Source of the DNA: Nitrospiria bacterium
GTDB lineage: Bacteria; Nitrospirota; UBA9217
Assembly (NCBI GenBank): GCA_919902495.1
Contig: CAKKRC010000045.1
Span: 3,162 to 67,161 of the forward strand
Reading direction: 5' to 3'
Length of the DNA: 64,000 bases
Within the stretch, counting starts at the first letter, position 1. Each line of letters opens with the position of its first letter. Position numbers and translations under genes: made by a program. Of the stretch, positions 121-63,465 are shown one piece after another. The notes beneath the pieces are model-generated. The model searched no databases, had not been told where the DNA came from, and worked only from the letters and a program-made list of their open reading frames with translations.

Positions 121-180
121 TTCAGGAGTCAGGAGACATGAGACAGGAGACATGAGACAGGAGACAGGAGGGGATTGCCC
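121..180. repeat. Tandem oligo repeat (gagacaggagacatgagacagga units) in intergenic spacer
   Basis: Directly visible imperfect tandem repetition of an ~11-nt unit at 125-170. Confidence 0.7.
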
Positions 181-240
181 TTAATAGAGCTGTTTTCTTC
201 TGGGTACTGGCTTCTTGCACCTGAATCCTGAGTTTAAACC

Positions 241-696
241 ATGTCTGAACACTTGATAGTCGAAATACTGCCGCTCGGTAATTCCTCCGGGATACCGGTC
301 CCCCATTACCAGACCGAGCATTCCGCCGGTGTCGATCTCTATGCCGCTGTGGACGGAGACCTGGTCATCGGACCGGGCCAGTGGAAGCTCGTGCCGACGG
401 GTATTGCCGTGGCGATCCCCGAGGGATACGAGGGACAGGTCCGGCCCCGAAGCGGTCTCTCGTTGAAACATGGCATCGGCATGCTGAATGGTCCAGGGAC
501 CATCGACGCCGACTACCGCGGAGAGATCGGCATCATCCTGTTCAACTTCAGCGATCGGCCGTTCCCGGTCCGCCGGGGCGATCGCATCGCCCAGCTTGTT
601 TTCGCGAAGCTTACGAAAGCTGAATTCAGGACCGTCGAATCGCTTTCTGAGACTCGACGCGGAAGCGGCGGTTTCGGCCACACGGGGGTCAAATAA
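241..696 (+). CDS. dut: dUTP diphosphatase (dUTPase)
   Basis: 151 aa. Motifs [20 protein letters not shown] and final FG..HTG are characteristic of trimeric dUTPase. Confidence 0.9.
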
Positions 697-741
697 TTGC
701 GGATTTCGGAATGCGGATTGCGGAATGAAAGAATGGAGCGA

Positions 742-2067
742 ATGGTCATGACAAGACTGAAAAAAATGATGGTAACGGTATTGCTGGTGCTTTCCGCATC
801 GGCCTCATTCGGCCAGGAGATGAAGGTCTCTGAGACGATACTTCCGAACGGGCTGAAGGTCCTGCTCAAGGAAGAGCACAAGTCGCCGGTGGTCACCTTC
901 CAGATCTGGTACCGCGTCGGGGCCAGGAACGAGCAGCTTGGCAAGACCGGCATGTCGCACCTGCTGGAGCACATGATGTTCAAGGGCTCGAAGAACTACG
1001 GTCCCAAACAGTTCTCGCAGGTCGTCCAGCGCAACGGCGGCAATGACAATGCGTTCACCAGCAAGGATTACACCGCCTATTTCGAGAACTTTGCCGCCGA
1101 CCGCCTCGAGATCGCCATGGAACTGGAAGCGGATCGTATGCAGAACCTCCTCCTGGAACCCAAAGCCTTTCTCTCCGAGCGCGACGTGGTGAAAGAAGAA
1201 CGCCGCATGCGCTACGAGGATGACCCGACCAACATGATGGTCGAGCAGATGATGGCCACGGCTTTTTCCGCTCATCCCTACCAGTGGCCGGTGATCGGCT
1301 GGATGGCGGACCTGGGGAACCTGACGCGTGATGATCTATATCAGCATTACCGGACCTACTATGCGCCGAACAACGCTACCATCGTGATCGTCGGGGACTT
1401 CGACGCGAAGAAGGTGCTGCCCCTCGTGAAGAAGCATTTCGGGAGCATTCCCCGGGGACCGGAGGTCCCGAAGGTCGGAGCGGAGGAGCCGAAGCAGCAG
1501 GGTGAAAAACGGGTGATCGTAAAGCAGGAAGCAGAACTGCCGGCGATCTTCGCGGGGTATAAAGTGCCGACCATCAAACATCCCGATGCCTATGCACTGA
1601 ACGTCCTGCAGGGCATACTTTCGTCCGGCAAGAGCTCCCGTCTCTATAAGAGCCTCATTTATGACAAGCAGATCGCGCTGTATGCGGGCGGCGACTACGA
1701 CGATGTGTCCGTTGATCCCCACCTGTTCTATGTCTATGCGGGCGTCATGCCGGGCAAGAGCACGGAGGAAGTGGAAAAGGCGATCTATGCAGAGATCGAA
1801 CGGCTCAAGAACGATCCGGTGACAGATGAAGAGCTGCAGAAGGCGAAGAACCAGGCCGAGGCAAGCTTTGTCATGAGCCAGGACTCGGTGTTCTACCAGG
1901 CCATGCTCCTGGGACAGTATGAGACCGTGGCGAACTGGAAGCTGTTCGGTCAGTATCTTGACGCTATCCGGGCCGTGAAGAAGGAAGACGTTCAGCGTGT
2001 CGCGAAGGCATACTTTACCGAGGATAATCGCACGGTGGGTATCCTGGTGCCGGTGAAAAAACAATGA
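742..2067 (+). CDS. M16 family zinc peptidase (insulinase-like), secreted, active subunit
   Basis: Signal peptide MVMTRLKKMMVTVLLVLSASASFG. HLLEHMMFKGS matches the inverted zincin HxxEH motif. The ORF start at 697 runs through an upstream repeat, so start was trimmed to the internal Met. Confidence 0.85.
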   Translation: MVMTRLKKMMVTVLLVLSASASFGQEMKVSETILPNGLKVLLKEEHKSPVVTFQIWYRVGARNEQLGKTGMSHLLEHMMFKGSKNYGPKQFSQVVQRNGGNDNAFTSKDYTAYFENFAADRLEIAMELEADRMQNLLLEPKAFLSERDVVKEERRMRYEDDPTNMMVEQMMATAFSAHPYQWPVIGWMADLGNLTRDDLYQHYRTYYAPNNATIVIVGDFDAKKVLPLVKKHFGSIPRGPEVPKVGAEEPKQQGEKRVIVKQEAELPAIFAGYKVPTIKHPDAYALNVLQGILSSGKSSRLYKSLIYDKQIALYAGGDYDDVSVDPHLFYVYAGVMPGKSTEEVEKAIYAEIERLKNDPVTDEELQKAKNQAEASFVMSQDSVFYQAMLLGQYETVANWKLFGQYLDAIRAVKKEDVQRVAKAYFTEDNRTVGILVPVKKQ

Positions 2068-2130
2068 CACGGGAACAAAAGAAGAGGCGACGCGGAGACA
2101 CGGAGACGCGGGGACACGGAGAGAAGACAA

Positions 2131-3480
2131 ATGCAGAATAAAAGGAAGTCCATCAAGCTATTGATCATTATCGTGATGGTTGCCATATTTGCGGCGCTGC
2201 CGGTCCAGGTGAATGCCATCGAGCCGCTAGGCAAGCGCATTGTGCTGAAGAACGGGATGGTACTTCTCCTTTCCGAAAAGCATGAGATCCCCATGGTGAC
2301 CGTGAGCATGGCCATCAAGGCAGGGAGTGTCGTGGAGCCCGGGGGCAAACCCGGCCTCGCGTCGCTCACGGCGTCGCTCCTCACCCAGGGGACGGCGAAG
2401 CGCACGGCGAGCCAGATCAGCAGGGAAATAGATTTCATCGGCGGTTCGCTCTCTGTCTCCGGAGGCGATGACTATGCTTCCGCGGGCCTTCGCGTTCTCA
2501 AGAAGGACATCAAGACCGGATTCGACCTGCTGTCCGACGTGCTGATGCATCCGGTCTTCGACCAGAAGGAGATCGACCGCAAGGTCAAGGAGACCCTGGC
2601 CGCGATCCAGCAGCAAAAGGAAGAGCCGGCGGTCATTGCCGGCGAGGCGTTCACCAAGGCGGTGTTCGGCAGTCATCCCTACGGTAAAACGAGTGATGAT
2701 GTTGCGGCATTCCTTCCGAAGCTTGTCCGGCAGGACGTGCTGGATTTCTACGCCCGGCGGTACGGCCCCAATGACGTAATCATCGCGGTGGTGGGGGACG
2801 TGACGGAGAAGGAGATCGTGTCCCTCCTGAAGGAACAGTTCAAGGGATGGAAGAACGCCGAGCGAACGGAAATGGAACGAACGAAACCGCCGGTGATCGG
2901 CTCGGTCATCGTCAAGAAGCTCGACAAGAACATCACCCAGGCGAACATCGCGATGGGCCATGTGGGCATCAGCCGGGAGAACCCGGATTACTATGCCGTG
3001 ATGATCATGAACTATATCCTGGGCGGGGGAGGGTTCTCGTCACGGCTCATGGACAACATCCGCGACAACCGCGGTCTTGCCTACGACGTGCACAGCTCGT
3101 TCTCGGCGCAGAAGGACCCCGGTCCCTTCCGGGCATGGATGCAGACCAAGAGCGAGTCGGCCAACGAGTCCATCGACGAGATCTTCAAGGAACTGAAGCG
3201 CATCCGCACCGAACCGGTATCGGAGAAGGAACTTGCCGATGCCAAGGCATATCTTACCGGGAGCTTCCCCCTGCGCATGGACACGTATGCGAAGATCGCA
3301 GGCATGTTGACTGCTATCGAAATATACAACCTCGGGATGGATTATCCCCAGAAGTATCCGGCGCTGATCAACGCGGTGACCCGCGAGGACATCCTCAGGG
3401 TCGCGAAGAAATATATCGATCCGGACCGCATGGTGATCGTGGTGCTGGGGAACCAGGAAAAGATAAAGCTGAAGTACTGA
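2131..3480 (+). CDS. M16 family peptidase, second (non-catalytic-type) subunit, secreted
   Basis: 449 aa with an N-terminal signal peptide. Homologous to the upstream M16 gene but lacks HxxEH. Paired M16 genes in tandem are typical. Confidence 0.8.
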   Translation: MQNKRKSIKLLIIIVMVAIFAALPVQVNAIEPLGKRIVLKNGMVLLLSEKHEIPMVTVSMAIKAGSVVEPGGKPGLASLTASLLTQGTAKRTASQISREIDFIGGSLSVSGGDDYASAGLRVLKKDIKTGFDLLSDVLMHPVFDQKEIDRKVKETLAAIQQQKEEPAVIAGEAFTKAVFGSHPYGKTSDDVAAFLPKLVRQDVLDFYARRYGPNDVIIAVVGDVTEKEIVSLLKEQFKGWKNAERTEMERTKPPVIGSVIVKKLDKNITQANIAMGHVGISRENPDYYAVMIMNYILGGGGFSSRLMDNIRDNRGLAYDVHSSFSAQKDPGPFRAWMQTKSESANESIDEIFKELKRIRTEPVSEKELADAKAYLTGSFPLRMDTYAKIAGMLTAIEIYNLGMDYPQKYPALINAVTREDILRVAKKYIDPDRMVIVVLGNQEKIKLKY

Positions 3481-3587
3481 CAGAAGACAGAGCACAGACG
3501 ACAGACAACAGACTGGAGCCTGAGCAATGGGGCTGCTGTTTGTCTGCCGTCTGAACGTCTGATGTCTGTTGTCTGAATTTTGATCCT
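3481..3587. repeat. Palindromic intergenic hairpin element (cagacaacagac family)
   Basis: Left arm cagacgacagacaacagac pairs with right arm gtctgatgtctgttgtctg. A homologous copy lies at 59773-59865. Confidence 0.7.
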
Positions 3588-5339: not shown

Positions 5340-5374
5340 GCAATAAAATACACTACCTGTAATGAGGACCCACT

Positions 5375-6118: not shown

Positions 6119-6120
6119 TC

Positions 6121-7572: not shown

Positions 7573-7677
7573 CAGCGATATACCGCGGAGAACGCGAACA
7601 GGGGCGGAGGGAAGGTGTGCATACCTCGTCCCCACCCTGTGTGCTCTGCGGTGAACCATTTTTAGGACCATCATTTC

Positions 7678-8568: not shown

Positions 8569-8580
8569 AAATTTTGCACC

Positions 8581-8686
8581 GCAGAGATCACAGAGGACGC
8601 AGAGGGTACATTTATTATTGGGGCTCCTTTCTCCGCGGTCTCCGCGTGCTCTGCGGTGAAATGATGTATTATTTTGGAGGTTTTTT
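8581..8686. repeat. Intergenic hairpin element (caccgcagag...ctctgcggtg family)
   Basis: caccgcagagatcacagaggacgcagagg pairs with ctccgcggtctccgcgtgctctgcggtgaa. Confidence 0.7.
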
Positions 8687-14524: not shown

Positions 14525-14628
14525 AGGAGCAAGTAGACAGTAGACAGGAAACAGTAGACAGGAGTGCGTAAAGGAGGCGTTCGTATCTTCATCATTGCCC
14601 TGTATACTATGTACCGTCTACTGTATTC

Positions 14629-17070
<2,442 letters not shown>

Positions 17071-17810: not shown

Positions 17811-17954
17811 GTTTTGAAACCTCTAACCAGTTGTTGTCTATCCGCAGCCAAGTCGTAAAGAATGGATTTCCGTTCTTTACCAGTTTAGCAGGAGCATTAC
17901 CAATTTTACTTCAATTGATATAGCCACATCAATAGATCGATGGCGAATATGTAC

Positions 17955-19046: not shown

Positions 19047-19280
19047 CGGTCTCTCCGATCAGGGAACGCCGTGATGTCAGTATGGAGAACGAAACATTAG
19101 TGTGGTGCTTTGTTAAATACTACTGAAACTGAAATCACCCCACCTAACCTCCCCTTTGTAAGGGGAAGGACGTATTGCCCCTCCTTGCCAAGGAGGGGTT
19201 GGAGAGGTGGTTCGAACAAAGACAGCTATGGGACTTTTTCAGCTACCTGATGGGAAGAAGGTCTGCTACCTATCGCGGGA

Positions 19281-22439: not shown

Positions 22440-22625
22440 TCTGGAAATGAACTACTAATATAAAAATACATCTCACCGCGAAGGCGCAAGGGTCGCGAGG
22501 AAAGCGAAAAACTATCTGTCATATTAATTTGCGTTTGCTTCGCTTCGCTCGCATAGACAGCCTGGACAGGGTGTCCTTGCGTCCTTCGCGCCTTCGCGGT
22601 TCACAGGTGTGTTCATTGAAATGGC
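22440..22625. repeat. Intergenic hairpin element between the two arnA halves (caccgcgaaggcgcaagg family)
   Basis: caccgcgaaggcgcaagggtcgcgagg pairs with ccttgcgtccttcgcgccttcgcggtt. Confidence 0.7.
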
Positions 22626-24510: not shown

Positions 24511-24718
24511 AAATCAATGAATCAATTGGACGCGGATAAAATCTGATGTACGCGGATAAACCAAATAGAATCAATTCAGGAATTTATTAAAAGCATGTAT
24601 CGATCTGATGCTGCTCGCCTTTGGTCAGTGTTCATCAGTGTCAATCCGTGTCCCACGTGATGTTTGCAGTTGTTTTATCCGTGTGCATCCGCGAAAATCC
24701 GCGTCCAAAACAGTCCTT
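24511..24718. repeat. Intergenic hairpin element (ggataaaatctgatg / cgcggataaacc family)
   Basis: ggacgcggataaaatctgatgtacgcggataaacc pairs with ttttatccgtgtgcatccgcgaaaatccgcgtcc. Confidence 0.65.
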
Positions 24719-25894: not shown

Positions 25895-26015
25895 ATAAAC
25901 GGCACATCAAGGAATATATATTTACCGCAGAGAGCGCGGAGCGCGCTGAGAAGGCATTTCAACGAATGAACTCTGCGATCTCTGCGTCCTCTGCGGTGAA
26001 ATAAGACGTTTGCGC
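25895..26015. repeat. Intergenic hairpin element (ccgcagagagcgcggag / ctctgcggtgaaa)
   Basis: Inverted repeat around 25921-26010. Confidence 0.65.
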
Positions 26016-28033: not shown

Positions 28034-28118
28034 GAGGTGGTCTTTCGTTCAACGCTGAGAAAAACCAATAATATCCCGCGCATGAAGGATTGTCAACCGG
28101 TTTCGCGGTTTTCAGGGA

Positions 28119-28799: not shown

Positions 28800-28933
28800 A
28801 AGGTTCTCCTTGAACTTCGTAAGGGGTCAGGGGTAAGGGGTTAGGGGTTAGGAGCAATGAGTAGGGACGCTTTTCGCAACAGACGCAGACGCTATACGCC
28901 TTACCCTTTACTCCTTACCCCTCACCGCAATTA
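28800..28933. repeat. Intergenic hairpin element (ggggtcaggggtaagggg / cccctcacc family)
   Basis: G-rich arm gtaaggggtcaggggtaaggggttagggg pairs with C-rich arm ccttaccctttactccttacccctcacc. Confidence 0.7.
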
Positions 28934-30537: not shown

Positions 30538-30741
30538 GAATTAACATCCACCACGGAGACACGGAGTCACGGAGAAAGCCAAAAGCTTTTGTAACCACAG
30601 ATGAACACAGATGGACACGGATAGAACATCAGAAAATACTTAATTGTCGTTGATTTTATCTGTGTTTATCTGTGTTAAAAGTATTTATTAAGCAGTTCTC
30701 CGTGCCTCCGTGCCTCCGTGTCTCCGTGGTGAAAAGGTCCG
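30538..30741. repeat. Intergenic nested hairpin element between pstA and pstC
   Basis: ccacggagacacggagtcacggag pairs with ctccgtgcctccgtgcctccgtgtctccgtgg. An inner pair cacagatgaacacagatggacacggat / atctgtgtttatctgtg is nested. Confidence 0.75.
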
Positions 30742-31695
30742 TCATCTCGGGTACTTCTTCTCCGCCCGCATCAGGATGACCTTCGATATCGCCAGGGTGG
30801 CGAAGCTCATGGCGAAGAGCACCAGCGCCAGGCCGAAGAGCGACGAGAGGTAGATGTCCTTGTCGGCTTCGGTGAACTCGTTGGCGAGCGTCACGGTGAT
30901 GGTCGAGGCCGCGTCGAAGAGCGACGTGGCGATCTTGTGGTTGTTGCCGAGCACGAAGGCAACGGCCATGGTCTCGCCGAGCGCCCGACCCAGGGAGAGC
31001 ACGATCCCGCCGAACACACCCAGCTTGGAATAGGGGACCACCACGTCTTTCACCACTTCCCATTGGGTGGCGCCGAGGGCATAGGCCGATTCCTTCACGA
31101 CTGCCGGTGTGAGGTTGAAAGAGTCACGCGCGATGCTCGCCGTGAACGGGATGATCATGATCGAGAGGATGACGCTTGCAGTCAGGATATCGATCCCCAG
31201 GGGCGTCCCCCGGAACAGGACCTCGATGACCGGTACTTTGCCGAGCGTGCTCTGGAGCGCCGGCTCGACGTATTTGCTCATGAGCGGGGCAAGGGTGAAG
31301 AGCCCCCACATGCCGTAGATGATGCTCGGTATGGCGGCCAGCAGTTCGATGGCAATACCGACAGGGCCTTTCAGAAAGTTCGGGGCGATCTCGGTTATGA
31401 AAATGGCGATGCCGATGGCAAGAGGGATCGCCAGGACCAGTGACAGCACGGTCGTGACCACGGTGCCGAAGATGGACGTTGCAGCGCCGAAGTTCTCCTT
31501 CACCGGATCCCAGCTGAGCGACGTGACGAAGTCAAATATCCCGAACTTCTGCAGGGCCGGCCAGGACCGCGTGGCCAGCACCCAGAGAATGCCGATGATG
31601 AAGACAATGACCGTCATCGACGCCAATGCGGTGATGGCGGAGAACAGAAGGTCCAGGGGGTTCTTTTTCGTCAAGATCGGCAAGAGTGACCTCAT
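30742..31695 (-). CDS. pstC: Phosphate ABC transporter permease PstC
   Basis: ABC permease. ORF-track start 31827 reads through the repeat element (LCLCVSV). Start placed at MRSLLPILTKK. Confidence 0.8.
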   Translation of the reverse strand: MRSLLPILTKKNPLDLLFSAITALASMTVIVFIIGILWVLATRSWPALQKFGIFDFVTSLSWDPVKENFGAATSIFGTVVTTVLSLVLAIPLAIGIAIFITEIAPNFLKGPVGIAIELLAAIPSIIYGMWGLFTLAPLMSKYVEPALQSTLGKVPVIEVLFRGTPLGIDILTASVILSIMIIPFTASIARDSFNLTPAVVKESAYALGATQWEVVKDVVVPYSKLGVFGGIVLSLGRALGETMAVAFVLGNNHKIATSLFDAASTITVTLANEFTEADKDIYLSSLFGLALVLFAMSFATLAISKVILMRAEKKYPR

Positions 31696-31959
31696 GCAAG
31701 AAACATCTGCCACAGAGACACAGAGGCACAGAGAATAGAACTGACAAGGCATTTCACCGCAGAGGACGCAGAGGAAAAGCAAGCGAGGAAGGCAAGTGTC
31801 TTTGAATTGGTTTTGAACCGGCCCCAAAAAAATGACTTGGGTTTAAAAACCCAAAGTGCCGCTTTTGACATTATCGTCCTCTGCGTCCTCTGCGTCCTCT
31901 GCGGTGAAAAAGACTTTGAACTTCTCCGTGTCTCTGTGCCTCCGTGGCAAAAGATTTTA
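31696..31959. repeat. Intergenic nested hairpin element between pstC and pstS
   Basis: Outer arms ccacagagacacagaggcacagag / ctccgtgtctctgtgcctccgtgg. Inner arms caccgcagaggacgcagagg / cctctgcgtcctctgcgtcctctgcggtg. Confidence 0.75.
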
Positions 31960-32970: not shown

Positions 32971-33022
32971 ATCGCTTCTCTCCTTTTTGAATTTTATCAT
33001 AGATTCTTTATACCGGTGGATT

Positions 33023-33042
33023 GTTACAGGAATATTACAGGG
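33023..33042 (-). promoter_or_regulatory. Putative Pho box (two CTGTAA(T/C) direct repeats with 11-bp periodicity) upstream of pstS
   Basis: On the minus strand: CTGTAATATTC CTGTAACAATC, 50-70 nt upstream of the pstS start. Matches the PhoB-box architecture (7-bp repeats plus 4-bp spacer). Confidence 0.5.
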
Positions 33043-33287
33043 AAAGAGAATTTTGTGACCTGACCTGGACAAACCAAACAAATGACCCAATGCATCTCAC
33101 GCACCCAAAAGCAGGCGCTACTAAGCGAGCCGCAAACGCCAAGAAGATCATGAATCGACAGCCCAAATGCTAGAGATGTTGGCTTTCCTTTGCGAGCTCA
33201 GCGACTTTGCGCGAAACGGCCATGTCCTCTTGAGAAGAACTTGATCTGTTATTGGGTAAAACGTGGGGGAAAGGATTGTAGAGGGCC

Positions 33288-34487: not shown

Positions 34488-34839
34488 AAGGGTTTATTCG
34501 TAATGAAGTTGAAAGACAACTACGAACTTCTGTCTCTCGCAAAGCCGCCAAGCACGCAAAGTGAAACAACGACAGAAGAAAGAATAAGGGCTCTGATCTT
34601 GATGCAATAATCTTAATCAAGTACGTATGTCCATCCTCTTATTGCAGCTTCCTGTTCTTGTGATGTTCATCCTTTCTTTGCGTCTGGTTTGTTTTAGTCA
34701 AGTATTTTTATAAAAGCATTGCTTTTAAGATGTCGTGGTCTTTGAGTGCGGCACCTTATCCAATTCTGGTTTAAAGGGTCTCGACAGAGCCCTGATCTTG
34801 CTTGATTGGAAATAAGGTGCAAGCGGGAAGTCATGTAAG

Positions 34840-36300
34840 CTTTGCGAGAAGGTCGGCTGGGCCGCCTTAAATGACGCAAACGATGATCTCCCCGCTCACA
34901 CGCAACGACCGTATCTGTTACGCCGCTTCTTGGAAAGTTGGTTTCGCGTAGTTCTCAACGTAAACGCTATGATCACGCACCAGAGCGAATATAAGCACCA
35001 GAAGTTTCCGGCTGACCGCCACGAGGGCTTTGGTCTTCTTCATGCCCCGGCTCAGCGCTCGCTGATACCACGCGTGCATCACACCGTCTTTTCGCACCGC
35101 GCTCAGTGCTGCAAGGTACAAAAGCTTGCGCATGAGTGGCCTGCCGCGCTTGGAAATTCGAAGCTTGCCCCGGTGTTTTCCCGAACTGACCTCATACAGA
35201 TCAAGCCCCGCGAGCTTCATTACCTCGGAGATGGTGCCAAATTTGGTGAAATCTCCAACTTCTCCGATCAGTCCCGCTGCGGTGACCGGGCCGATCCCTT
35301 TGAGCGACAGGATGACCCGGCTATAGGGGATCTGCTCCAACTGCCGGACCATCTCCGCCTCCGAATCTTCGATAAAGCAATCGTAGGAGACTATCGTTTC
35401 AAGGATCAGCCTGATCTCCAGAAGCATGCTGTCCCGGCCAGCCGTGATGCCGACCGATGCGCGGGAAGCCTCAAACAGCGCTCTGGCACGGTCTTCTCTG
35501 ATCTTCCCCCGGCTGACTTTTCGGAGCAAAGAGGCCAAGGCCGTTTCTCCGAGGTTTACAATATCCTGCGGCGTCGGGTGATGCTTCAGCAGGTGCTGGG
35601 CGCTCGCGGTTGTTATGTCATGCATCACCTGCAGGAACTCGGGAAAGAAACTCGCCAGAAGGCACTGCATCTGATTAAGCAGCCGGGTACGACTGGTAAT
35701 CGTTCGTTCTCTGCCCTGGGTAAGCCTTCGAAGCTCGGCCGCCGGTCCCTCGGGGATCACCACGGTCAGGGCATGGCCAAGCTCGATAATATCAGCTATG
35801 ACCTTCGGATCCTTCCGGTCGGTCTTGAGCGGCGAATTGCCCGAAAGCTCCTTCAGCCGCTTCGTATGCATCGGGTTGACCTGTACCAGCCGGACGCCTC
35901 TTCTGCTTTTCAGGAACTGCGCCAGGGGCTCCATATACGGCCCCGTGGACTCAAAACCGACGATTATTTCTTCAAGGCCATGCGCTCTCGCTGTCGACGT
36001 GATGCGCTCCAAGAACTCCTGGAAGCCACTGCCGTTGTTCTCAAAGGGCAGCGATTTGCCGTCGGTGCCGTCGGGACAACGAAAATATCCGTAATGCTTT
36101 TCTTTTCCTCCGTCAACCGTTGCGATGAGAACTTTTTTATTGACTGCATAAGGACGTTTTGGTTTAATCTTCTTCACGGCTATGCTCCTTTCTTCGGTTT
36201 GGATTTACCAACTCGCGATTGGTCCAAATCAAGAAAGAGTATAGCCGTTTTTGCTATGGCTTAGCTACTTTCTACAATATAGCAAGCTTTGCGAGAAAAT
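34840..36300. mobile_element. IS110-family insertion sequence (approximate boundaries)
   Basis: IS110-type transposase gene flanked by a repeated aagctttgcgagaa motif at ~34838-34852 and ~36283-36297. IS110 elements lack terminal IRs. Confidence 0.6.
34918..36177 (-). CDS. IS110 family transposase (DEDD_Tnp_IS110 N-domain plus Transposase_20 C-domain)
   Basis: 419 aa. Family hallmarks: IGPVTAAGLIGEVGDFTKF helix-hairpin-helix region and ALVAVSRKLL near the C-terminus. Confidence 0.85.
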   Translation of the reverse strand: MKKIKPKRPYAVNKKVLIATVDGGKEKHYGYFRCPDGTDGKSLPFENNGSGFQEFLERITSTARAHGLEEIIVGFESTGPYMEPLAQFLKSRRGVRLVQVNPMHTKRLKELSGNSPLKTDRKDPKVIADIIELGHALTVVIPEGPAAELRRLTQGRERTITSRTRLLNQMQCLLASFFPEFLQVMHDITTASAQHLLKHHPTPQDIVNLGETALASLLRKVSRGKIREDRARALFEASRASVGITAGRDSMLLEIRLILETIVSYDCFIEDSEAEMVRQLEQIPYSRVILSLKGIGPVTAAGLIGEVGDFTKFGTISEVMKLAGLDLYEVSSGKHRGKLRISKRGRPLMRKLLYLAALSAVRKDGVMHAWYQRALSRGMKKTKALVAVSRKLLVLIFALVRDHSVYVENYAKPTFQEAA

Positions 36301-36843: not shown

Positions 36844-36944
36844 AGAGCTGATCTCGTGCCACAGAAGTTGAGCATTATTATTGCAGGCTGGTAAAGAACG
36901 GAAATTCGTGTTTTACTAGCCAGAGACGGCTAGACAATCACTGG

Positions 36945-49019: not shown

Positions 49020-49150
49020 AAGGAACAAGAATAGTACAAAAATACATTGCGCCACGAAGGCACCAAGACACTAAGAAGATCTTGAAAAGTTAACGCATTG
49101 ATCAAATACAGAAGCCGCTCATGCATTTTTTTCGTGTCTTCGTGGCAAAT
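49020..49150. repeat. Intergenic hairpin element (ccacgaaggcaccaagacac / gtgtcttcgtgg)
   Basis: Inverted arms visible in the phoB-metK spacer. Confidence 0.65.
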
Positions 49151-50453: not shown

Positions 50454-50503
50454 TAGAACAGGGGTCAGGGGTCAGGAGTCAAATAAACTACTAACAGCTG
50501 ACA

Positions 50504-50953: not shown

Positions 50954-51180
50954 GTGCAATTCCCTGGAGTCGCCTTGCAGGTTCCTCCCCAAAGATAAGC
51001 CCCCTCTCCCTTTTTCCCTCTCCCACTGGGGGAGAGGGGCAGGGGTGAGGGGAGTTGTTTTGGGTTAGGTGGGGGTGATGAGCACGAACGCCGAATACTT
51101 CACCCTCCCCTTAATCCCCTCCCATCGAAGGGAGGGGAGAGTTAAAAGCCACGATACTTCGTAGTTTGCTACGGGGAGGA
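50954..51180. repeat. Intergenic hairpin element (cccctctccc...ggggagaggggcagggg family)
   Basis: C-rich and G-rich complementary arms. Related copies at 60650-60750 and 62080-62170. Confidence 0.65.
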
Positions 51181-55067: not shown

Positions 55068-55461
55068 GTCTCTTCTCCCGTGACGTATTTCCATTCCAGA
55101 CAAGCCGGAACCAAATGTTGCCACAAAGACGCGAAGGCACGAAGAAAATCAGTAGTGGCCGATGGATTTGCTCACTTCTTTAATTTCATTCTTTGTGTCT
55201 TAGAGCCTTCGTGGCTGAAGTTTGTTTCATTTTGGCAAGAATATAATTCGTAACTACGTAACAGTGTACCCGTACTTTAATGCAAGGTCAATCGGCGCCG
55301 TTATACAACGCGAAACAATGCGTTCCTGTATAGGTTTTGTTCAGGTGACGCGAAATACATCTTGTCTTACATATGCAGCAGGCGTCGTTCGTCGTCTATA
55401 CCGGAAGGAAATAGACAATGGAATCAGCAAAATAGGCAATTATTCGCAGGAGGTGAAAAAA

Positions 55462-55477: not shown

Positions 55478-55497
55478 ATTACCAAAGCAAATCCTAA

Positions 55498-56358
<861 letters not shown>

Positions 56359-56546
56359 TCCGATTGCGGATTGCGGATTGCGGAATAAAAACAACGGCAA
56401 GAATCGAACCTTTTCACCGCGAGGGCGCGAGGAGCGCGAGGAAATCATAAACAAGAATTAAAGAAAATGAATTCTGCCGTCCTCGCGACCTTTGCGCCCT
56501 CGCGGTGAAAGGTTTTATATCCGGCCTTTGACGTTAGGAGAAAATT
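56359..56546. repeat. Intergenic elements between nifH and nifD: gcggattgcggaat tandem motif plus hairpin (caccgcgagggcgcgagg / cgccctcgcggtgaaa)
   Basis: attgcggattgcggattgcggaat at 56361-56386, also found after dut at 697-726. Inverted arms at 56405-56425 and 56490-56515. Confidence 0.7.
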
Positions 56547-57986
56547 ATGACAACAAAGATCAAAGACACCCAGAAGATGATCGAAGATGTCCTCTCGGTC
56601 TATCCCGAGAAGTCAAAAAAAGAGCGTGCCAAGCACCTGGCCGCCAACGACCCGACAGGACAATGCAGCACCTGCCAGGTGAAGGCGAACGTCAAGTCCC
56701 GGCCCGGCGTTATGACCGTGCGCGGTTGCGCTTACGCCGGCGCCAAGGGTGTGGTCTGGGGCCCGGTGAAGGACCAGATCACGATCAGCCACGGTCCCAT
56801 CGGTTGCGGGCAGTACTCCTGGTGGTCGCGCAGGAACTACTACAACGGCCAGACCGGGATCGACGCTTTCGGCACCATGCACATAACGACGGATTTTCAG
56901 GAAAAGAACATCGTCTATGGCGGCGACAAGGGTCTCGATCTGGCGATCAAGGAGCTGCACGGGCTGTTCCCGCTGGGTCGCGGCATCGGCATCCTGTCCG
57001 AATGCCCGGTGGGGCTCATCGGCGACGATATCGAAGCGGTCTCGAAGCGCGTGGCAAAGGAGATTAACATCCCGATCGTGCCGGTGCGGTGTGAGGGCTT
57101 CCGCGGGGTTTCTCAGTCCCTGGGCCACCACATCGCGAACGATACGATCAAGGATTATGTGCTCGGCAAAGGCACGCTTGAAAAGACTACACCCTACGAC
57201 GTGAATCTGATCGGCGACTACAATATCGGCGGCGATGCCTGGGCATCGCGCAAAATACTCGAGGAGATGGGCCTCCGCGTCATTGCCCAGTACACGGGTG
57301 ACTCAACGATCAACGAGCTCGGCATTGCAAGCAAGGCCAAACTGAACCTGATCCACTGTTATCGGTCTATGAACTACATCTGCCGGACCATGGAAGAGAA
57401 CTACGGCATTCCCTGGATGGAATTCAATTTCTTCGGACCCACCAAGACCTTTGACAGCATCAGGAAGATCGCCGCCAAGTTCGACGAAAAGATCCGGAAG
57501 AACTCCGAGGCTGTGATCGCCAAGTACACGCCGCTCATGGAAAAGGTGGTGGCGCAGTACCGGTCGAAGCTGGAAGGCAAGAAAGTAATGCTCTACGTCG
57601 GGGGCCTCCGTCCGCGCCACACCATCGGCGCCTACGAGGACCTGGGCATGGAAGTGGTTGCTTCCGGTTATGAGTTCGGCCACGCTGACGATTACAAGCG
57701 CACCTATCCCGAGCTGAAAGAAGGCGCGGTGATCATGGATGACGCGACCTTGTATGAATTGGAAGAGTTCACCCGCAGGCTGAAACCGGATATGGTCGGA
57801 TCGGGCATCAAGGAGAAATACTCCTACCATAAGCTCGGCGTGCCGTTCCGGCAGATGCATTCCTGGGACTACTCGGGACCCTATCACGGGTTCGACGGGT
57901 TCCCGGTCTTCGCAAGGGACATGGACATGACGGTGAACAGCCCGACGTGGGATTTGATCAGAAGAAAAAATGAAAAAAATCTTTGA
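56547..57986 (+). CDS. nifD: Nitrogenase molybdenum-iron protein alpha chain
   Basis: 479 aa. NifD N-terminal region and Cys/His cofactor ligands. RBS AGGAG. Confidence 0.9.
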
Positions 57987-58266
57987 CACGGATTTACACA
58001 GATAACAGCTATGAAGGGGCATGATAAGGCAGGATGTATCCATGAAAACCATAGCCTTTATCCGCCTCTTCCGTGTCAAAGGTGTAGCCTTTTGATCGTC
58101 GTATACAGGAAAAGTAAATTCTTTGACACGGATTTCCACAGACAAAAGCTATGAAGGGGCACGATAAGGCGAAGGATGTATCCGTGAAAATCATAGCCGT
58201 TATCCGCCGCTTCAGTGTCTAAGGCATGTTTTGTTTATGGGTTAATAAAGTTTGGAGGGGATCATC
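57987..58266. repeat. Two tandem copies of a ~100-bp hairpin element between nifD and nifK
   Basis: ctttgacacggatttacacagataacagctatgaaggggcatgataaggc...tccgtgtcaaagg and a second ~90%-identical copy. Each copy is itself an inverted repeat (gacacgga / tccgtgtc). Confidence 0.8.
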
Positions 58267-59772: not shown

Positions 59773-59865
59773 CAGACGGCAGAACACAGATGACAGACAA
59801 CAGACTAGAGCTTTTGAATCTGTCTGTTATCTGGCAGTCTGACATCTGATGTCTGGGAGTTACCC
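59773..59865. repeat. Palindromic intergenic hairpin (cagacaacagac family), homolog of 3481-3587
   Basis: acagacaacagactagagc...gtctgttatctg. Shares the acagacaacagact[g/a]gagc core with the element after the second M16 gene. Confidence 0.7.
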
Positions 59866-60606
59866 ATGCACGACATCGCACTAAGCGGCATATACTTCTT
59901 TTCCATCGCCCTTCTGTATTCCACGGTCGGTCACGCGGGGGCATCGGGCTACCTGGCGACGATGGCGCTTCTTTCGTTCACGCCGGAGGTCATGAAACCG
60001 ACCGCATTGGCGCTCAATATCATCGTTGCCCTGGTCACGACCGTCCGGTTCGCGATGGCCGGTCATTTTTTCTGGCGGTTGTTCTGGCCCTTTGCTTGTG
60101 CGGCGGCACCAATGGCGTACATCGGCGGTGGCATGTCGATGGATGCCGCGCTTTACAAAATACTCGTAGGCATCGCGTTGGTGTTCGCCGCGCTCCATCT
60201 CATGCTCAGGATCAATGCAGCAACAGATGATACTGAAGGAGCACCTCATCCGGGGATAGCTGCATCGCTGGCAGTGGGGGGAGGCATCGGGTTCCTTTCC
60301 GGTCTCACCGGAGTCGGCGGCGGCATTTTTCTCAGCCCGGTCCTGATCTCTCTTCATTGGGCGGGATTCCGGAGAACGGCCGCAGTGGCTGCGGCATTCA
60401 TTCTTTTGAACTCGATCACCGGTTTGGCGGGATATCTTCAAACGGGCGGCGTATTTCCGGATCACATCGCCTTCTGGTCCGTTGCGGTCCTTTCCGGCGG
60501 ATTCATCGGATCTACGTTAGGAGCAACGAGATTTAACAGCCCCGCGCTGAGGGTATTGCTCGGGGTCATGCTGGTCATGGCAGGGGTGAAGATGGTCGTC
60601 ATCTGA
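59866..60606 (+). CDS. TauE/SafE (DUF81) family membrane permease embedded in the nif cluster
   Basis: 246 aa, 7-8 TM. Internal duplication with glycine-rich motifs (GGGIGFLSGLTGVGGGIFL). Confidence 0.6.
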   Translation: MHDIALSGIYFFSIALLYSTVGHAGASGYLATMALLSFTPEVMKPTALALNIIVALVTTVRFAMAGHFFWRLFWPFACAAAPMAYIGGGMSMDAALYKILVGIALVFAALHLMLRINAATDDTEGAPHPGIAASLAVGGGIGFLSGLTGVGGGIFLSPVLISLHWAGFRRTAAVAAAFILLNSITGLAGYLQTGGVFPDHIAFWSVAVLSGGFIGSTLGATRFNSPALRVLLGVMLVMAGVKMVVI

Positions 60607-60759
60607 GGACAGGGTTCAGCGTTCATAGTGAAGACCGAGGATCGGCGAGTTTTGATGTAATACGGCTGCGATAACCCCTCACCCCAACCCTCTCCCCGCA
60701 GGGGCGAGGGAGTATGAAGTTCATTCTCTCCCCAGGGGGAGAGGACCAAGGTGAGGGGG

Positions 60760-63465
60760 ATGGGCATGACTATGACAACGACGCTCGACAAATTAACGGC
60801 AGACGGCTGTTCCACGGACGACAAACACAAGGTCTGCCGCTCGCGGGGCGGCGAGTCCTGCGCCTTCGACGGGGCCATGATCGTGCTCCAGCCCATCGCG
60901 GACACGGCCCATATCGTCCACGGCCCGATCGCCTGCTGCGGGAACTCCTGGGAAGGGCGGGGGACCCTGTCGGCCCAGGGGGGGCTGCACCGGATGGGCT
61001 TCACCACGGACCTGGGCGAGATCGATATCGTCTACGGCGCAGGCAAGAAGCTCCATGATGCCATTGTAAGGACGCACCAAGCGGTCCAGCCGAAGGCCAT
61101 CTTCGTCCATGCGACCTGCGTGAGCGGCCTCATCGGCGAGGACATCGAGGCGGTGTGCAGAGAGGCCGAAGCGGAGCTGGGGATCAGGGTCATCGCGGTG
61201 AGCGCGCCGGGATTCACAGGACCCAAGAACCTGGGAAACCGCATCGCCGGGGAGGTGCTGCTCGATCAGGTCATCGGTACCGGCGAGCCCTCTGTCACGA
61301 CGCACTGCGATATCAACCTCATCGGCGAATACAATATCGCCGGCGACCTGTGGCTCGTGGAGCCGCTTCTGGAGCGTGCGGGCATCCGCGTCCTGTCCCG
61401 GATCACGGGGAACGCGACCTTCGACGAGATCACCCATGCCCACCGGGCGAAACTGAACGTCGTGGTCTGCGGCCGCGCTCTGATCAATGTCGCCGCGGGC
61501 ATGGAGCGGAAGTACGGGATCCCCTTCGTTGAGGCATCGTTCTACGGAAGGACCGAGACATCAAAGGCGCTGCGGTCCATTGCGGAGCAGCTCCAGGAGT
61601 CAAAGGACAAGAGCCGGAGGTCGGGAGACCCCCACATACGGGGAGCCGTCGAAGCGCTCATCAAGGGCGAAGAAAAAAAGCTTCAGGAGGCGCTCAAGCC
61701 GTACAAGCACCTGCGGGGGAAAAAGGCGGTCCTCTATACGGGAGGCGTGAAGAGCTGGTCCTTCATCTCCGCCCTGCACGACCTCGGGATCGAGGTCGTG
61801 GCGGTAGGAACGAAAAAGAGCACGGTAGAGGATGAGGAAAAGATGAAGAAGATCCTCGGTCCCGGAGCACCGCTCATCGAGGACGTGACGCCGAAGAACC
61901 TTGTGAAGCTCCTTAAGGAAAGGCATGCCGACATTCTCGTGGCCGGAGGCAGGAACCAGTACCTGGCGATCAAGGAGGGCTACCCCTTCGTCGACGTGAA
62001 CCAGGAACGCCACAGTGCTTATGCCGGGTATCAGGGGCTGGTGAATTTGGCGGAAGATATAAGCAATAGCATAAGATTCTACCGGGGGAGTTCAGAGTGC
62101 GGAGTGCGGAGTGCGGATTTCCCCCTCACCCCAGCCCTCTCCCCGGACGGGAGAGGGAGAAAACAATCTGACATCGCGTATCCGAAATCAGCAATCCTCA
62201 TCGATCCGTTGAAGCATTCTCCCGCCATCGGCGCCGCCATTGCGTTCCAGGGCGTCCACCGGGCATTGCCGGTCATCCACGGGGCACAGGGCTGCGGCTT
62301 TCTCGGCAAGGTGCTGCTCACCAAGCACTTCCGGGAGCCGATGGCCCTCGCAACCACCAAGCTCTTCGTGGAGAACGTGGTGCTGGGTAGCGAGGAGATC
62401 CTGGAACGGGCCATAGAGGGTTTTATTGAAAAAAACACCCCCGATGTCATCGGGGTCCTGACGTCGGGACTGTGCGAGGTTAAGGGGGATGACGTTAAAG
62501 CAGTAGTCAGGAGACAGGAGACCGGAGTCAGGAGTAACGGCGCAAAGACGAAGATCATCCATGTTGCGACGCCCGATTATGACGGTGGGCTGGAACAAGG
62601 TTATGCGAGGGCGGTGGAGGCGATCCTTGAAAGTGCGGAGTTACCGATCGGATCGGGACAGGTCTCCATGCGGCGTGCGGATGAAAAACAAGTTAACATC
62701 CTGGCGGGATCGCACCTGACACCTGCCGACGTTCAGGAACTGCGGGAGATCGTTGAGTCATTCGGTCTGCAGCCGATAATCCTGCCCGACCTGTCCGCTC
62801 TCGATGGAAGCAGAAGGAACTTTTCCCCGCTCGCAGACGGGGGCACGACGGTTGAAGATATGAAGGCGATGGCGGGATCCGTCTTGACCCTTGCGGTTGG
62901 GAGAAGCATGGAGCCGGCGGCGAAGATGTTGAAAGAGGCCAGCGGCATGGAGTACCGTGTCATCGAGGGTCTTTGCGGGTTGCTGGACACCGACCGGTTG
63001 ATGGCGATACTTTCGGAAGTCAGCGGCAGAACAATGCACAAGCGGTATGACCGGCAGAGGAGAAGCCTGATCGACGGGATGCGGGACGCGCATTTCTTCT
63101 ATGGCAGGAAAAATGTCTGCATCGCCCTGGAACCTGACCTGGCACTGCAGGCGTCGCGTTGGCTGGATGAGATGGGCGCCCGCGTGGAACTCGCTGTGAT
63201 CCCGACGCTGTCGGCATCGGCCGACCATATCCTTGCGCGGAGGGTGGAACTCGGCGACCTTTTCTCGATCCGCGGCCGATTTGATCTCCTTATCTCGAAT
63301 TCCCATGGGACGGAAACGGCACAGCGTCTCAAGGCGCCGCTGTACCAGACCGGCTTCCCGGTCTACAAGGTCCTGGGCGCCGCCTCGCGGGTAACGATCG
63401 GATACCGGGGAACGCTGGCGATGATCAACGAGGTGGGGAATCTGATGATGCATCATCCTGCATGA
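60760..63465 (+). CDS. nifEN: Nitrogenase FeMo-cofactor scaffold NifE-NifN fusion protein
   Basis: N-terminal ~440 aa are NifE-like. From ~62190 the sequence is NifN-like (IDPLKHSPAIGAAIAFQGVHRALPVIHGAQGCGF). One continuous reading frame with no internal stop. A ~30-aa linker (SSECGVRSADFPLTPALSPDGRGRKQSD) is encoded by a repeat element. Confidence 0.8.
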   Translation: MGMTMTTTLDKLTADGCSTDDKHKVCRSRGGESCAFDGAMIVLQPIADTAHIVHGPIACCGNSWEGRGTLSAQGGLHRMGFTTDLGEIDIVYGAGKKLHDAIVRTHQAVQPKAIFVHATCVSGLIGEDIEAVCREAEAELGIRVIAVSAPGFTGPKNLGNRIAGEVLLDQVIGTGEPSVTTHCDINLIGEYNIAGDLWLVEPLLERAGIRVLSRITGNATFDEITHAHRAKLNVVVCGRALINVAAGMERKYGIPFVEASFYGRTETSKALRSIAEQLQESKDKSRRSGDPHIRGAVEALIKGEEKKLQEALKPYKHLRGKKAVLYTGGVKSWSFISALHDLGIEVVAVGTKKSTVEDEEKMKKILGPGAPLIEDVTPKNLVKLLKERHADILVAGGRNQYLAIKEGYPFVDVNQERHSAYAGYQGLVNLAEDISNSIRFYRGSSECGVRSADFPLTPALSPDGRGRKQSDIAYPKSAILIDPLKHSPAIGAAIAFQGVHRALPVIHGAQGCGFLGKVLLTKHFREPMALATTKLFVENVVLGSEEILERAIEGFIEKNTPDVIGVLTSGLCEVKGDDVKAVVRRQETGVRSNGAKTKIIHVATPDYDGGLEQGYARAVEAILESAELPIGSGQVSMRRADEKQVNILAGSHLTPADVQELREIVESFGLQPIILPDLSALDGSRRNFSPLADGGTTVEDMKAMAGSVLTLAVGRSMEPAAKMLKEASGMEYRVIEGLCGLLDTDRLMAILSEVSGRTMHKRYDRQRRSLIDGMRDAHFFYGRKNVCIALEPDLALQASRWLDEMGARVELAVIPTLSASADHILARRVELGDLFSIRGRFDLLISNSHGTETAQRLKAPLYQTGFPVYKVLGAASRVTIGYRGTLAMINEVGNLMMHHPA
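62080..62170. repeat. Hairpin repeat element embedded in-frame between the NifE and NifN moieties
   Basis: ggagtgcggagtgcggagtgcggatttccccctcaccccagccctctccccggacgggagagggag, same family as the intergenic element at 60650-60750. Confidence 0.7.

Follow-up and report, generated by a model that had tools for sequence, protein, structure and literature searches.

Tandem-repeat palindromes in the operon spacers of an uncultured Nitrospirota bacterium

We analyzed a stretch of 64,000 nucleotides (the window) from an uncultured member of the Nitrospirota, which lies within a 585-kb contig of a Hainich groundwater metagenome (ENA ERZ1292624), and whose spacers between genes are occupied by palindromic elements with arms made of short tandem repeats. 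According to Pfam matches of the called genes, the plus strand carries dut, two M16 peptidase genes, mutL, terC, miaA, hfq and the genes that follow; the minus strand carries an arn-like lipid A modification cluster (arnT, an EamA gene, arnB, arnC, formyltransferase and epimerase genes, and arnD) together with pstSCAB-phoU; and nifH-D-K, a TauE gene, a fused nifEN and nifX lie on the plus strand. The gene names (pstS/pstC/pstA/pstB/phoU, arn and nif) assigned in a first-pass annotation, which had been made from the sequence alone, were therefore correct. The nearest genomes, as judged by MutL (65-67% identity), are two uncultured Nitrospirota, referred to below as L008 and L009.

Paired repeat arrays in the spacers

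Arrays were located with Tandem Repeats Finder, and their arms were paired by an inverted-repeat search. The resulting catalogue contains 18 hairpins with arms of tandem 7-10-nt units, including two nested pairs, as well as a duplicated hairpin element in the nifD/nifK spacer (two more hairpins), a degenerate copy beside an insertion sequence, and six arrays with one arm only (Table 1). Intergenic DNA makes up 11.6% of the window, and the elements cover 32% of its intergenic bases. When palindromes were ranked by BLAST of the window against its own reverse complement (cut-off at least 26 bits), nine of the best ten local inverted repeats in the 64 kb were these elements, and all nine were intergenic. 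Both arm pairs quoted in the first-pass annotation exist (caccgcagaggacgcagagg with cctctgcgtcctctgcggtg, at 31755 and 31886; caccgcgagggcgcgagg with cgccctcgcggtgaaa, at 56413 and 56495), and the inverted-repeat search paired 31752-31775 with 31886-31909 (24 nt, 100% complementary) and 56392-56442 with 56480-56530. Fold z scores were taken against dinucleotide shuffles, which retain the complementary composition of the arms; despite this, z was -3.3 or lower in thirteen spacers. The pstS/pstC spacer had a predicted fold of -127.5 kcal/mol, with z = -10.05 as RNA and z = -8.5 as DNA, and the nifH/nifD spacer had z = -7.45. The arrays, the paired arms, the BLAST ranking and the shuffle-tested folds bear out the earlier claim of a pervasive, non-random set of intergenic hairpins. 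Their units had also been called 3-nt periodic, which is wrong: the array periods were 7, 8, 9 and 10, with doubles of 14 and 16.

In each element, two arrays of 7-10-nt units stand in inverted orientation on either side of a copy-specific loop of 13-185 nt, which can include another such element or a terminator-like hairpin. Nesting of one element in the loop of another was observed in two spacers, i.e., pstC/pstA and pstS/pstC. The purine-rich, T-poor arm lies 5' in all 18 window elements and in 11 of 11 elements at other loci; pooled 5' arms contain 35% A, 33% G, 22% C and 10% T, and the 3' arms mirror that composition. At least ten different unit sequences occur in the window, with arms matching within each element, and they fall into three subfamilies: TTTCACC-(CRCRGAG-type units) ... 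GGTGAAA, which fits class 2 of the sites described in Geobacter metallireducens (see below); (CAGNNNN)n ... (NNNNCTG)n, which fits class 3; and CTTTGAC-(CGGAT-type units) ... GTCAAAG. BLAST of the loops of the 18 copies against one another and against the window gave only self matches and matches to arm repeats, and inspection of the flanks of all 18 revealed no consistent direct repeats of the kind left as target-site duplications.

In a census of spacers of at least 30 nt, hairpins occurred in 15 of 35 co-oriented, two of five divergent and none of five convergent spacers, and three further co-oriented spacers contained one-armed arrays only; the enrichment in co-oriented over other spacers was not significant (Fisher p = 0.28). 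Elements in co-oriented spacers take up nearly the whole spacer: the distance from the upstream stop codon to the start of the 5' arm is -2 to +21 nt, and 5-44 nt separate the end of the 3' arm from the start codon that follows. The exception is nifH/nifD, where the 5' arm lies 48 nt from the stop codon and the gap is filled by a one-armed array. As had been noticed previously, open reading frames (ORFs) run through the elements (697..2067; 30742..31827, compared with the called pstC at 30742..31695; and 60751..63465). A search with the covariance models of Rfam 15, which the first-pass annotation had proposed, gave no match at the gathering score on either strand of the window.

CRISPR arrays, attC sites, terminators and Hfq (A-R-N) sites were rejected on anatomy. 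The orientation of the one-armed arrays was also set aside as evidence: although the sense strand is the purine-rich one in all six, each of them lies where genes are on the plus strand, and relatives have pyrimidine-rich exceptions (TGCATCA in L100, TATTTGA in L118). An intrinsic-terminator scan of 28000-33400 called no tandem-repeat stem, and found only a small hairpin in the loop of e14. This consists of a terminator-like stem (TTTGGGTTTTTAAACCCAAG) followed by a T run (TCATTTTTTT) on the sense (minus) strand at 31855-31836, and is described here as older than the element enclosing it. Transcripts stopping at this terminator-like hairpin would hold the 5' arms only, whereas those reading through it would form the full stem. 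As a separate observation, the array GGGGTCAGGGGTAAGGGGTTAGGGGTTAGG at 28819-28852 in e10 has four G4 tracts with 3-nt loops, a canonical G-quadruplex motif, on the antisense strand of the pstB/phoU spacer; the G-rich arm of e10 could thus form a G-quadruplex.

Table 1. Repeat elements of the window, with fold z scores and the state of the same site in related genomes
Feature	Location	Positions	Strand	Arms, units and ends	z	Same site in relatives
Hairpin e1	upstream of dut	121..232	.	5' arm (CAGGAGA/CATGAGA) x7; 3' arm degenerate, CTG every 7 nt		hairpin in L009 (CAGGAGT units) and L008 (CAGTAGA units)
One-armed array a1	dut / first M16 peptidase gene	698..727	+	(TGCGGAW) x4, Tandem Repeats Finder		AATGCGG units in L008, GTTCAAA units in L009
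One-armed array a2	ends at GGAG just 5' of second M16 peptidase start codon	2089..2122	+	(GACACGGA) x4		
Hairpin e2	M16 peptidase gene / mutL	3479..3578	.	(GACAGAC) x5 / (TGTCTGA) x5	-5.2	(CCAGGAG) x4.6 hairpin in L009
Hairpin e3	terC / miaA	6119..6279	.	TCACC-(ACAGAGAC)n ... (CTCTGTGY)n-GGTAGA; 107-nt loop; 17 nt at 100%	-5.1	L009: arms kept with changes on both sides; loop unalignable
Hairpin e4	hfq / PNP_UDP gene	7584..7656	.	ACCGCGGAGAACGCG ... CTCTGCGGTGAAC		no element in orthologous L009 spacer
Hairpin e5	PNP_UDP gene / pfkB	8574..8661	.	CRCAGAGRA units; ends TTGCACC ... GGTGAAA		L009: hairpin of CACGAAGG units
Hairpin e6	HMA-ATPase gene / Mut7-C gene	14531..14630	.	(CAGTAGA)n; fills spacer, overlaps ATPase stop codon	-3.9	
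Hairpin e7	formyltransferase / epimerase genes (arnA halves)	22471..22604	.	CGCGAAGG units	-5.6	
Hairpin e8	arnB / arnC	24526..24708	.	TTGGACGCGGATAAA ... ATCCGCGTCCAA; inner (TCAGTGTCAA) array		
Hairpin e9	EamA gene / arnB	25920..26001	.	CGCAGAGRG units; ends TTTACC ... GGTGAAA	-3.3	
Hairpin e10	pstB / phoU	28819..28926	.	(GGGGTNA) x4.4 / (TNACCCY) x4.6	-3.4	
Outer hairpin e11	pstC / pstA, encloses e12	30546..30734	.	CACC-(ACGGAGNC)n ... (CTCCGTGN)n-GGTGAAA; 25 nt at 92%	-7.4	
Inner hairpin e12	nested in e11	30596..30676	.	(CACAGATGAA) x3.6 / (TTTATCTGTG) x2.2		
Outer hairpin e13	pstS / pstC, encloses e14	31705..31952	.	GCC-(ACAGAGRC)n ... (CTCYGTGY)n-GGCAAAA	-10.05	
Inner hairpin e14	nested in e13	31752..31909	.	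TTTCACC-(GCAGAGGAC)n ... (GTCCTCTGC)n-GGTGAAA; 24 nt at 100%; 98-nt loop		
Degenerate element	IS110-family insertion sequence abuts	34534..34852	.	CGCAAAG units; 5' end TCTCGCAAAGC at 34534, complement GCTTTGCGAGA at 34839		
Hairpin e15	divergent spacer, response-regulator / SAM-synthase genes	49047..49150	.	GCC-(ACGAAGGC/ACCAAGAC) ... CTTCGTGGCAAA		
One-armed array a3	after SAM-synthase gene	50459..50481	+	(CAGGGGT) x3.3		
Hairpin e16	divergent FGGY/nifH spacer, 48 nt from FGGY start	55116..55219	.	GCC-(ACAAAGAC/GCGAAGGC/ACGAAGA) ... CCTTCGTGGCTGA		
One-armed array a4	directly 3' of nifH stop codon	56362..56384	+	(GATTGCG) x3.3		
Hairpin e17	nifH / nifD	56392..56530	.	AACCTTTTCACC-(GCGAGGRN)n ... 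CCCTCGCGGTGAAAGGTT	-7.45	
Two tandem copies of a whole hairpin element	nifD / nifK; fill spacer	57976..58224	.	ends CTTTGACACGGAT ... CCGTGTCAAAGG		
Hairpin e18	nifK / TauE gene	59773..59860	.	(ACAGACR)n units	-4.3	
One-armed array a5	nifE-nifN junction, inside continuous nifEN frame	62087..62117	+	(GGAGTGC) x4.4		
Array a6	inside NifN coding part	62501..62535	+	(CAGGAGN) x5; encodes loop RRQETGVRSNG		

Arm matching, turnover and distribution

The first-pass annotation had taken compensatory co-variation as a sign of selection on secondary structure. For 15 class-2-like copies, we anchored the arms at their ends and counted pairs, with 500 shuffles and slid registers as controls; such counts were used in place of a covariance model because a single model would mean nothing for copies whose loops span 13-185 nt and whose units change. 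Standard pairs filled 81.7% of cells compared with 67.6% in shuffles (reached in 0/500), changes on both sides were present in 20 of 24 stem pairs, and the covariation score was 0.524, as against 0.273 in shuffles (0/500) and 0.11-0.27 in slid registers. The claim of copy-specific arm matching therefore stands. However, these copies are paralogues, chosen partly for being complementary, and the counts show that each copy is a palindrome rather than that a homologous RNA fold is under selection; hairpin-templated correction, or the mode of formation itself, would give the same picture. As evidence of fold selection the argument is weaker than was claimed. A strand test based on G·U pairs (see below) gave no consistent signal.

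L009 is fully syntenic with the window over 1-9.6 kb, with ~80% protein identity and 50.5% identity at fourfold-degenerate sites. The spacers upstream of dut and at M16/mutL, terC/miaA and PNP/pfkB hold a hairpin in the window and also in L009 and L008, with units that differ, as do CAGGAGA (window), CAGGAGT (L009) and CAGTAGA (L008). The units of orthologous arms can be aligned one by one: CAG or CTG recurs without change every 7 nt, the variable positions are uniform within a species, and the loops are unalignable. At mutL/terC an element is present in L009 where the window has 35 nt. Conservation of arms over loops was rejected as evidence, since arm identity exceeds that of fourfold sites by a modest margin only and is inflated by the alignment of repeats.

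A scan of metagenomes with PstC provided 80 pst operons. Most of these operons have 32 nt between pstC and pstA, and the closest relative, L088 (88% identity), has 57 nt there and no element. About ten relatives have a longer spacer at this place, of 84-260 nt, and in at least five of them (L090, L097, L098, L115 and L118) it contains hairpins, with the units ACAGGAT, CGGATAA, AGGAAGT and CCAAAT. The ends of the nifD/nifK element recur around the elements in the pstC/pstA spacers of L090, L097 and L098; in the nifD/nifK spacer itself the duplication has a period of ~140 nt, its copies are 88-91% identical, loop included, and the first begins in the last nifD codons. After pstS, more distant relatives have an ordinary perfect stem-loop (GGGTCAGGT ... 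ACCTGACCC); a stem at this position looks like a lasting feature, for which a structural role is plausible. Overall, turnover between related species is quick: elements appear, disappear, or are rebuilt at the same site from other units.

Two side observations concern the pst operon. When L088 (820-1125) was compared with the window (31696-31959), pstS/pstC hairpins of the CGCAAAG and CACGGAG types lay side by side in L088, whereas in the window the other hairpin lies between CACAGAG/CACGGAG arms, of which the outer one on the 3' side looks orthologous. It seems that one arm has been made anew beyond the neighbouring hairpin, for which no current model accounts. In addition, the pstA gene as called (start at 30501, 268 aa) is probably truncated, judging by alignment: an ATG at 30537 (280 aa) aligns with relatives such as L088 (MTREQRRKLSGLIA), and would place the start only ~8 nt after the 3' arm of the hairpin. 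Logan short-read assemblies of the same population (L216-L219) end inside arms, at 31904, 30593, 30691 and 30706, so the repeats fragment assemblies.

The same architecture was found among 80 MutL loci from other phyla, i.e., in a Desulfobacterales metagenome-assembled genome (CACCACGAAAG ... CTTTCGTGGTT), the Olavius Delta 1 symbiont, Candidatus Methanoperedens (CACGGAT units), Anaerolineae and Ardenticatenaceae. BLAST against plasmid records added an element with the ends TTTCACC ... GGTGAAA from Bacteroides finegoldii, where it lies between pheS and the gene of an MFS transporter, several copies in Gemmatirosa kalamazoonensis, and one-armed arrays of great length, built from the same octamer, in Burkholderia stagnalis. 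One of these one-armed arrays (L214, NZ_CP156686.1, 2486945-2487676) consists of more than 35 head-to-tail octamers (GACGCGGA, GGCACGGA, GACACGCA, GACACGGA); there are 13 such array places in this sequence, and the same unit thus occurs as an array resembling a variable-number tandem repeat in Betaproteobacteria. An exact search of IMG/VR for CACGGAGNCACGGAGNCACGGAG matched 44 predicted viral stretches, where by our own estimate fewer than one would be expected for 21 fixed bases. Among 57 strand-resolved CACGGAG x3 arrays in IMG/VR, a complementary partner lay downstream in 30 and upstream in none; most arrays are preceded by TCAC or AAC and then C, and several are nested around a second hairpin. 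The CACGGAG arm had no match in GenBank phage genomes, and the viral assignment of these contigs, which may be host fragments or prophage flanks, therefore needs checking.

Other features of the window touch on these elements. A second, unrelated repeat consists of pyrimidine-first CCCTC/GGGAG palindromes, e.g., CCCTCTCCC ... GGGAGAGGG, at 19136-19211, 50997-51054, 51100-51143, 60674-60758 and 62118-62159, which lie in one convergent spacer, in two co-oriented spacers and inside nifEN; Geobacter class 4 (CCYTC) corresponds to them. nifE and nifN form one uninterrupted frame of 899 codons (ORF 60766-63465), the junction of which (62070-62200) contains the GGAGTGC heptamer array and then a CCCTC-type palindrome, translated ...RGSSECGVRSADFPLTPALSPDGRGRK..., with no stop codon and no obvious nifN start codon. 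This is either a true fusion through a repeat-derived linker or an annotation that reads through a former spacer. The IS110-family insertion sequence (34837-36297; DEDD transposase gene at 34918-36177, minus strand) is flanked by a 14-nt direct repeat, AAGCTTTGCGAGAA, at 34837 and 36284, and this repeat is also the 3' end of the CGCAAAG-unit element whose 5' end is at 34534. Its placement parallels that of IS110 relatives that target repetitive extragenic palindromes (REPs), and of ISGme8/9 beside Geobacter class 1 sites. A strong hairpin at 36178-36245, upstream of the transposase gene, may be part of the guide (bridge) RNA region of this IS110 element. Finally, a dispersed short repeat, CTGGTAAAGAACGGAAAT ... 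followed by TAGACAA..ACTGG, occurs at 17870-17930 in the TPR/gcvT spacer (minus-strand reading) and at 36885-36940 downstream of a 172-aa ORF.

Explanations for the elements

From the anatomy, polarity, positions, turnover and family identity described above, we infer a REP-like role, and the comparison with REPs already drawn in the first-pass annotation appears apt. Our preferred reading, to which we assign a probability of about 0.5, is that the elements belong to a widespread intergenic superfamily of short-tandem-repeat palindromes that act as REP-like stem-loops between the cistrons of operons. Arrays would grow and become uniform by replication slippage, their arms would stay complementary by templated correction in the hairpin, by selection for pairing, or by both, and new elements would arise or insert preferentially in existing spacers and loops. 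Because the elements sit between the stop and start codons of co-oriented genes, the whole element would be transcribed within the polycistronic mRNA, and would fold into a stem of 20-60 bp that blocks 3'-exonucleases or offers a site for RNase III, like a REP or an STRR (short tandemly repeated repetitive) sequence; upstream cistrons such as pstS and nifH would then outlast or out-express downstream ones. Folding would also close the stem near the stop codon and the next start codon and leave the folded spacer effectively short, so that operons with otherwise 32-nt or overlapping junctions could tolerate insertions of 100-250 nt. Stem-loops are described as setting operon stoichiometry in Clostridium (PMC4423207).

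Several points weigh against this reading, in which transcription, folding and the effect on mRNA are all predicted. G·U wobbles provide a strand test, because they stabilize the transcribed strand only, and we set G·U wobbles on the sense strand against A·C mismatches by comparing the folding energies of sense and antisense strands for each spacer. The sense strand was the more stable in 13 of 20 spacers from the window, L008 and L009, and, in a set of 74 pst-operon spacers of relatives, in 32 of 72 overall and 15 of 45 that fold strongly. Given no consistent sense bias, nothing points specifically to RNA over DNA, although transcription-linked deamination could mimic a sense-strand bias and the test cannot decide the matter. 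Arm identity between species (51-77%, inflated by the ease with which repeats align) is to be set against ~50% for neutral sites, and the absence of a pstC/pstA element from L088 indicates that it is dispensable there. Contigs of up to four other Hainich sequencing runs were identical to the window, with no variation in copy number or sequence, so that at the scale of the population there is no sign of fast slippage. Stabilizers of 3' ends would be expected in convergent spacers, yet none of the five holds an element, whereas two elements lie in divergent ones. Nor does the stem-loop model account for the strict polarity, with the purine-rich arm first, or for the conserved ends.

Differences in presence and absence at identical spacers between relatives would also suit non-autonomous mobile DNA resembling MITEs (miniature transposable elements with inverted repeats) or paired inverted REPs (REPINs). 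A transposase whose gene lies elsewhere would recognize the conserved ends, probably in folded single-stranded form; the elements would insert into spacers and the loops of other copies, and would move between phyla, perhaps by way of phages. Nested elements, both in the window and in viral contigs, the whole-element tandem duplication at nifD/nifK, and the recurrence of the ends (TTTCACC ... GGTGAAA, CTTTGAC ... GTCAAAG) in Nitrospirota, Desulfobacterota, Gemmatimonadota, Bacteroidota and the 44 predicted viral stretches fit that idea, as does the IS110-family insertion sequence abutting the end of one element. Relatives of IS110 abut REPs in a similar manner. In Geobacter, ISGme8/9 adjoin class 1 sites (PMC2700814). 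We nevertheless consider mobile DNA of this kind a doubtful explanation. There are no target-site duplications, the 18 loops are dissimilar, dispersed copies are all different elements, and at least ten unit families with one to few copies each in 64 kb are unlike the burst of a single MITE. No candidate transposase adjoins any copy, no gene resembling a REP-associated tyrosine transposase (RAYT) is among the window Pfam annotations, the IMG/VR matches may be host fragments or prophage flanks, and the unit-by-unit alignment of orthologous elements indicates descent in place rather than re-insertion. A classical MITE thus fails on target-site duplications and loop conservation, whereas the ends, nesting, spread and IS110 placement are features that a hairpin-recognizing mobilization may account for. 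It is equally unlikely, in our estimate, that the elements are a functionless by-product of mutation, in which slippage makes 7-10-nt arrays, template switching (quasi-palindrome correction) copies the inverted partner, and the products survive where harmless, i.e., in spacers. Copy-specific complementarity would then need no selection, units are indeed uniform within an array while the same site has other units in other species, close relatives can do without elements, and one-armed arrays exist, including the very long Burkholderia octamer arrays. Slippage via a 7-nt polymerase contact has been proposed (Mrazek, 2007, as cited in PMC4679880), and Borg tandem repeats, which are A-rich, T-poor and fast-evolving, have a similar composition bias (PMC9879509). 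Such a process gives no account, however, of the same units and ends across phyla, of the purine-rich 5' arm (29/29 locally, 30:0 in viral contigs), or of element starts within a few nt of stop codons, and copy number did not vary among samples.

The conserved ends (TTTSAC ... GTSAAA), the polarity, and systematic nesting with the same units in Nitrospirota, Bacteroides and predicted phage contigs alike are hard to obtain from slippage alone, and for this reason we also considered that the elements might be products of an active cross-phylum system, either mobile or self-templating DNA that targets hairpins, or an RNA device that insulates operon spacers. In one variant, arrays made on both 3' ends of a break from one short template would automatically give a purine-first palindrome; in another, placing the purine-rich arm first would keep the C-rich single strand from Rho before the stem closes. 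We regard this as rather improbable. The paired-site layout at variable distance (PMC2700814), the lack of sense-strand G·U bias, the two copies in divergent, promoter-containing spacers, and a fixed head-to-head array orientation suited to a symmetric multimer would all be compatible with double-stranded DNA binding arrays for a nucleoid protein or global regulator (the IHF/HU reading), a multimer of which would bend or loop the DNA. Yet one protein cannot read at least ten unrelated units, arm matching is a signature of within-strand pairing, and most copies lie between stop and start codons inside operons and not at promoters; as the IHF/HU proposal is also without experimental support in PMC2700814, we think this very unlikely. 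The chances of a single conserved structured non-coding RNA family with its fold under selection, as the co-variation argument implies, appear slighter than for any of these: strong copy-specific pairing, with many stem changes on both sides, and very stable predicted folds speak for it, but there was no Rfam match at the gathering score, the loops are unrelated and range over 13-185 nt, the elements read alike on both strands, there is no sense-strand G·U excess, and the copies, which are paralogous and differ in their units, come and go between close relatives.

If the elements are RNA stem-loops, as we prefer, they would form a major unannotated post-transcriptional layer in Nitrospirota, Geobacter and other environmental bacteria, occupying about a third of intergenic DNA at sites that would set operon stoichiometry, i.e., after pstS, after nifH and between arn genes. 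A practical consequence is that gene callers extend ORFs through the elements and can fuse genes, as with nifE-nifN.

Relation to known repeat systems

The 'putative global regulator binding sites' of G. metallireducens, classes 1-3 (Aklujkar et al., 2009; PMC2700814), include class 2 (TCTCCGTS[Y] x3) and class 3 (MTYCTGA x5), 'paired on opposite strands at variable distance'. They are intergenic, as between proB and proA, and insertion sequences adjoin some; the authors proposed that IHF/HU binds them and considered them unique to G. metallireducens (PMC2700814). Class 2 is the reverse complement of the window unit CACGGAGA, and class 3 that of the window unit TCAGRAK (TCAGGAG); both systems have tandem units of 7-9 nt, three to five per site, and are multicopy, intergenic and situated between operon genes. 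Within the window, class 2 CRCRGAG-type arrays lie at 2091, 6123, 30552, 31711 and elsewhere, and class 3 CAGRAK arrays at 123, 158 and 62508; a pattern search of the window for class 1 (GTTGCTYN) gave no match. The 3' arm of e1 is identical to G. metallireducens class 3 at 20 of 23 positions and the L009 3' arm to the published Gmet_I302A at 29 of 32, these being the extremes of the range against Gmet_I30x. The pairing seen in Geobacter is matched by the 18 inverted pairs with loops of 13-185 nt, its intergenic multicopy character by the 32% share of intergenic bases, and its occasional genic copies by the in-frame copies in nifEN. The window differs from the Geobacter description in having more unit variants and frequent nesting, in the occurrence of the elements in Nitrospirota and at least four further phyla, and in the hairpin reading given here. 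A report on G. bemidjiensis also mentions multicopy sequences in pst spacers. The first-pass annotation had allowed that the motifs might be a known REP or MITE family: the family has indeed been described before (Geobacter class 2/3, PMC2700814), but it lacks the target-site duplications and the conserved interior of transposon remnants.

Tandem 7-nt units in operon spacers able to form a hairpin, as in e1, e2, e6, e10 and e18, recall the STRR sequences. These are known from filamentous cyanobacteria, mostly as direct arrays, with the units CCCCAGT, TTGGTCA and CAACAGT. The consensus units obtained for the window with Tandem Repeats Finder are unlike these STRR1-3 sequences. Cyanobacterial STRR hairpins between hupS and hupL have a proposed, unproven function in transcript stability or translational coupling (PMC2670836). 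Heptamer and octamer long simple sequence repeats (7-8-nt units) have 89-93% of their copies in intergenic DNA (PMC4692102/PMC4679880). They include the GGGAATC repeats of Xanthomonas and GGGGAYT repeats of Nostoc, which are intergenic, near the upstream ORF and between co-oriented genes, with some inverted pairs (Rehm, 2015; PMC4692102), and the TAACTGA unit of Beggiatoaceae (PMC4679880). In the account of Mrazek (2007) given in PMC4679880, heptamers are the most abundant long simple sequence repeats in most genomes, and slippage is favoured by the 7-nt polymerase contact. The G-rich array of e10 resembles the Nostoc GGGGAYT repeats, which are able to form G-quadruplexes (Rehm, 2015). Heptamer systems have one dominant unit per genome and mostly single direct arrays, whereas here there are many units, mostly in inverted pairs with conserved ends.

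REPs, bacterial interspersed mosaic elements and REPINs are likewise extragenic hairpins within transcription units, a REPIN being two inverted REPs around a short spacer. REPs stabilize upstream mRNA segments and are targets of IS110-family insertions. A REP is, however, a single imperfect palindrome of 20-40 nt, with one conserved sequence per family and a link to RAYT genes, whereas the window elements have tandem-repeat arms that are not self-complementary, in at least ten unit types that vary between copies, and no RAYT gene is present in the Pfam lists of called window genes.

By sequence likeness, then, the window elements are not a new kind but members of a family described in Geobacter in 2009 and left uncharacterized. 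As far as we could find, its conserved ends, purine-first polarity and systematic nesting have not been described in the earlier literature; together with fast turnover at orthologous sites and a spread over at least six phyla, they are what this analysis adds. The cross-phylum spread and the polarity rule turn the repeats of a 2009 supplementary figure into a definable, searchable family, with cultured carriers in G. metallireducens, Gemmatirosa, Bacteroides finegoldii and Burkholderia.

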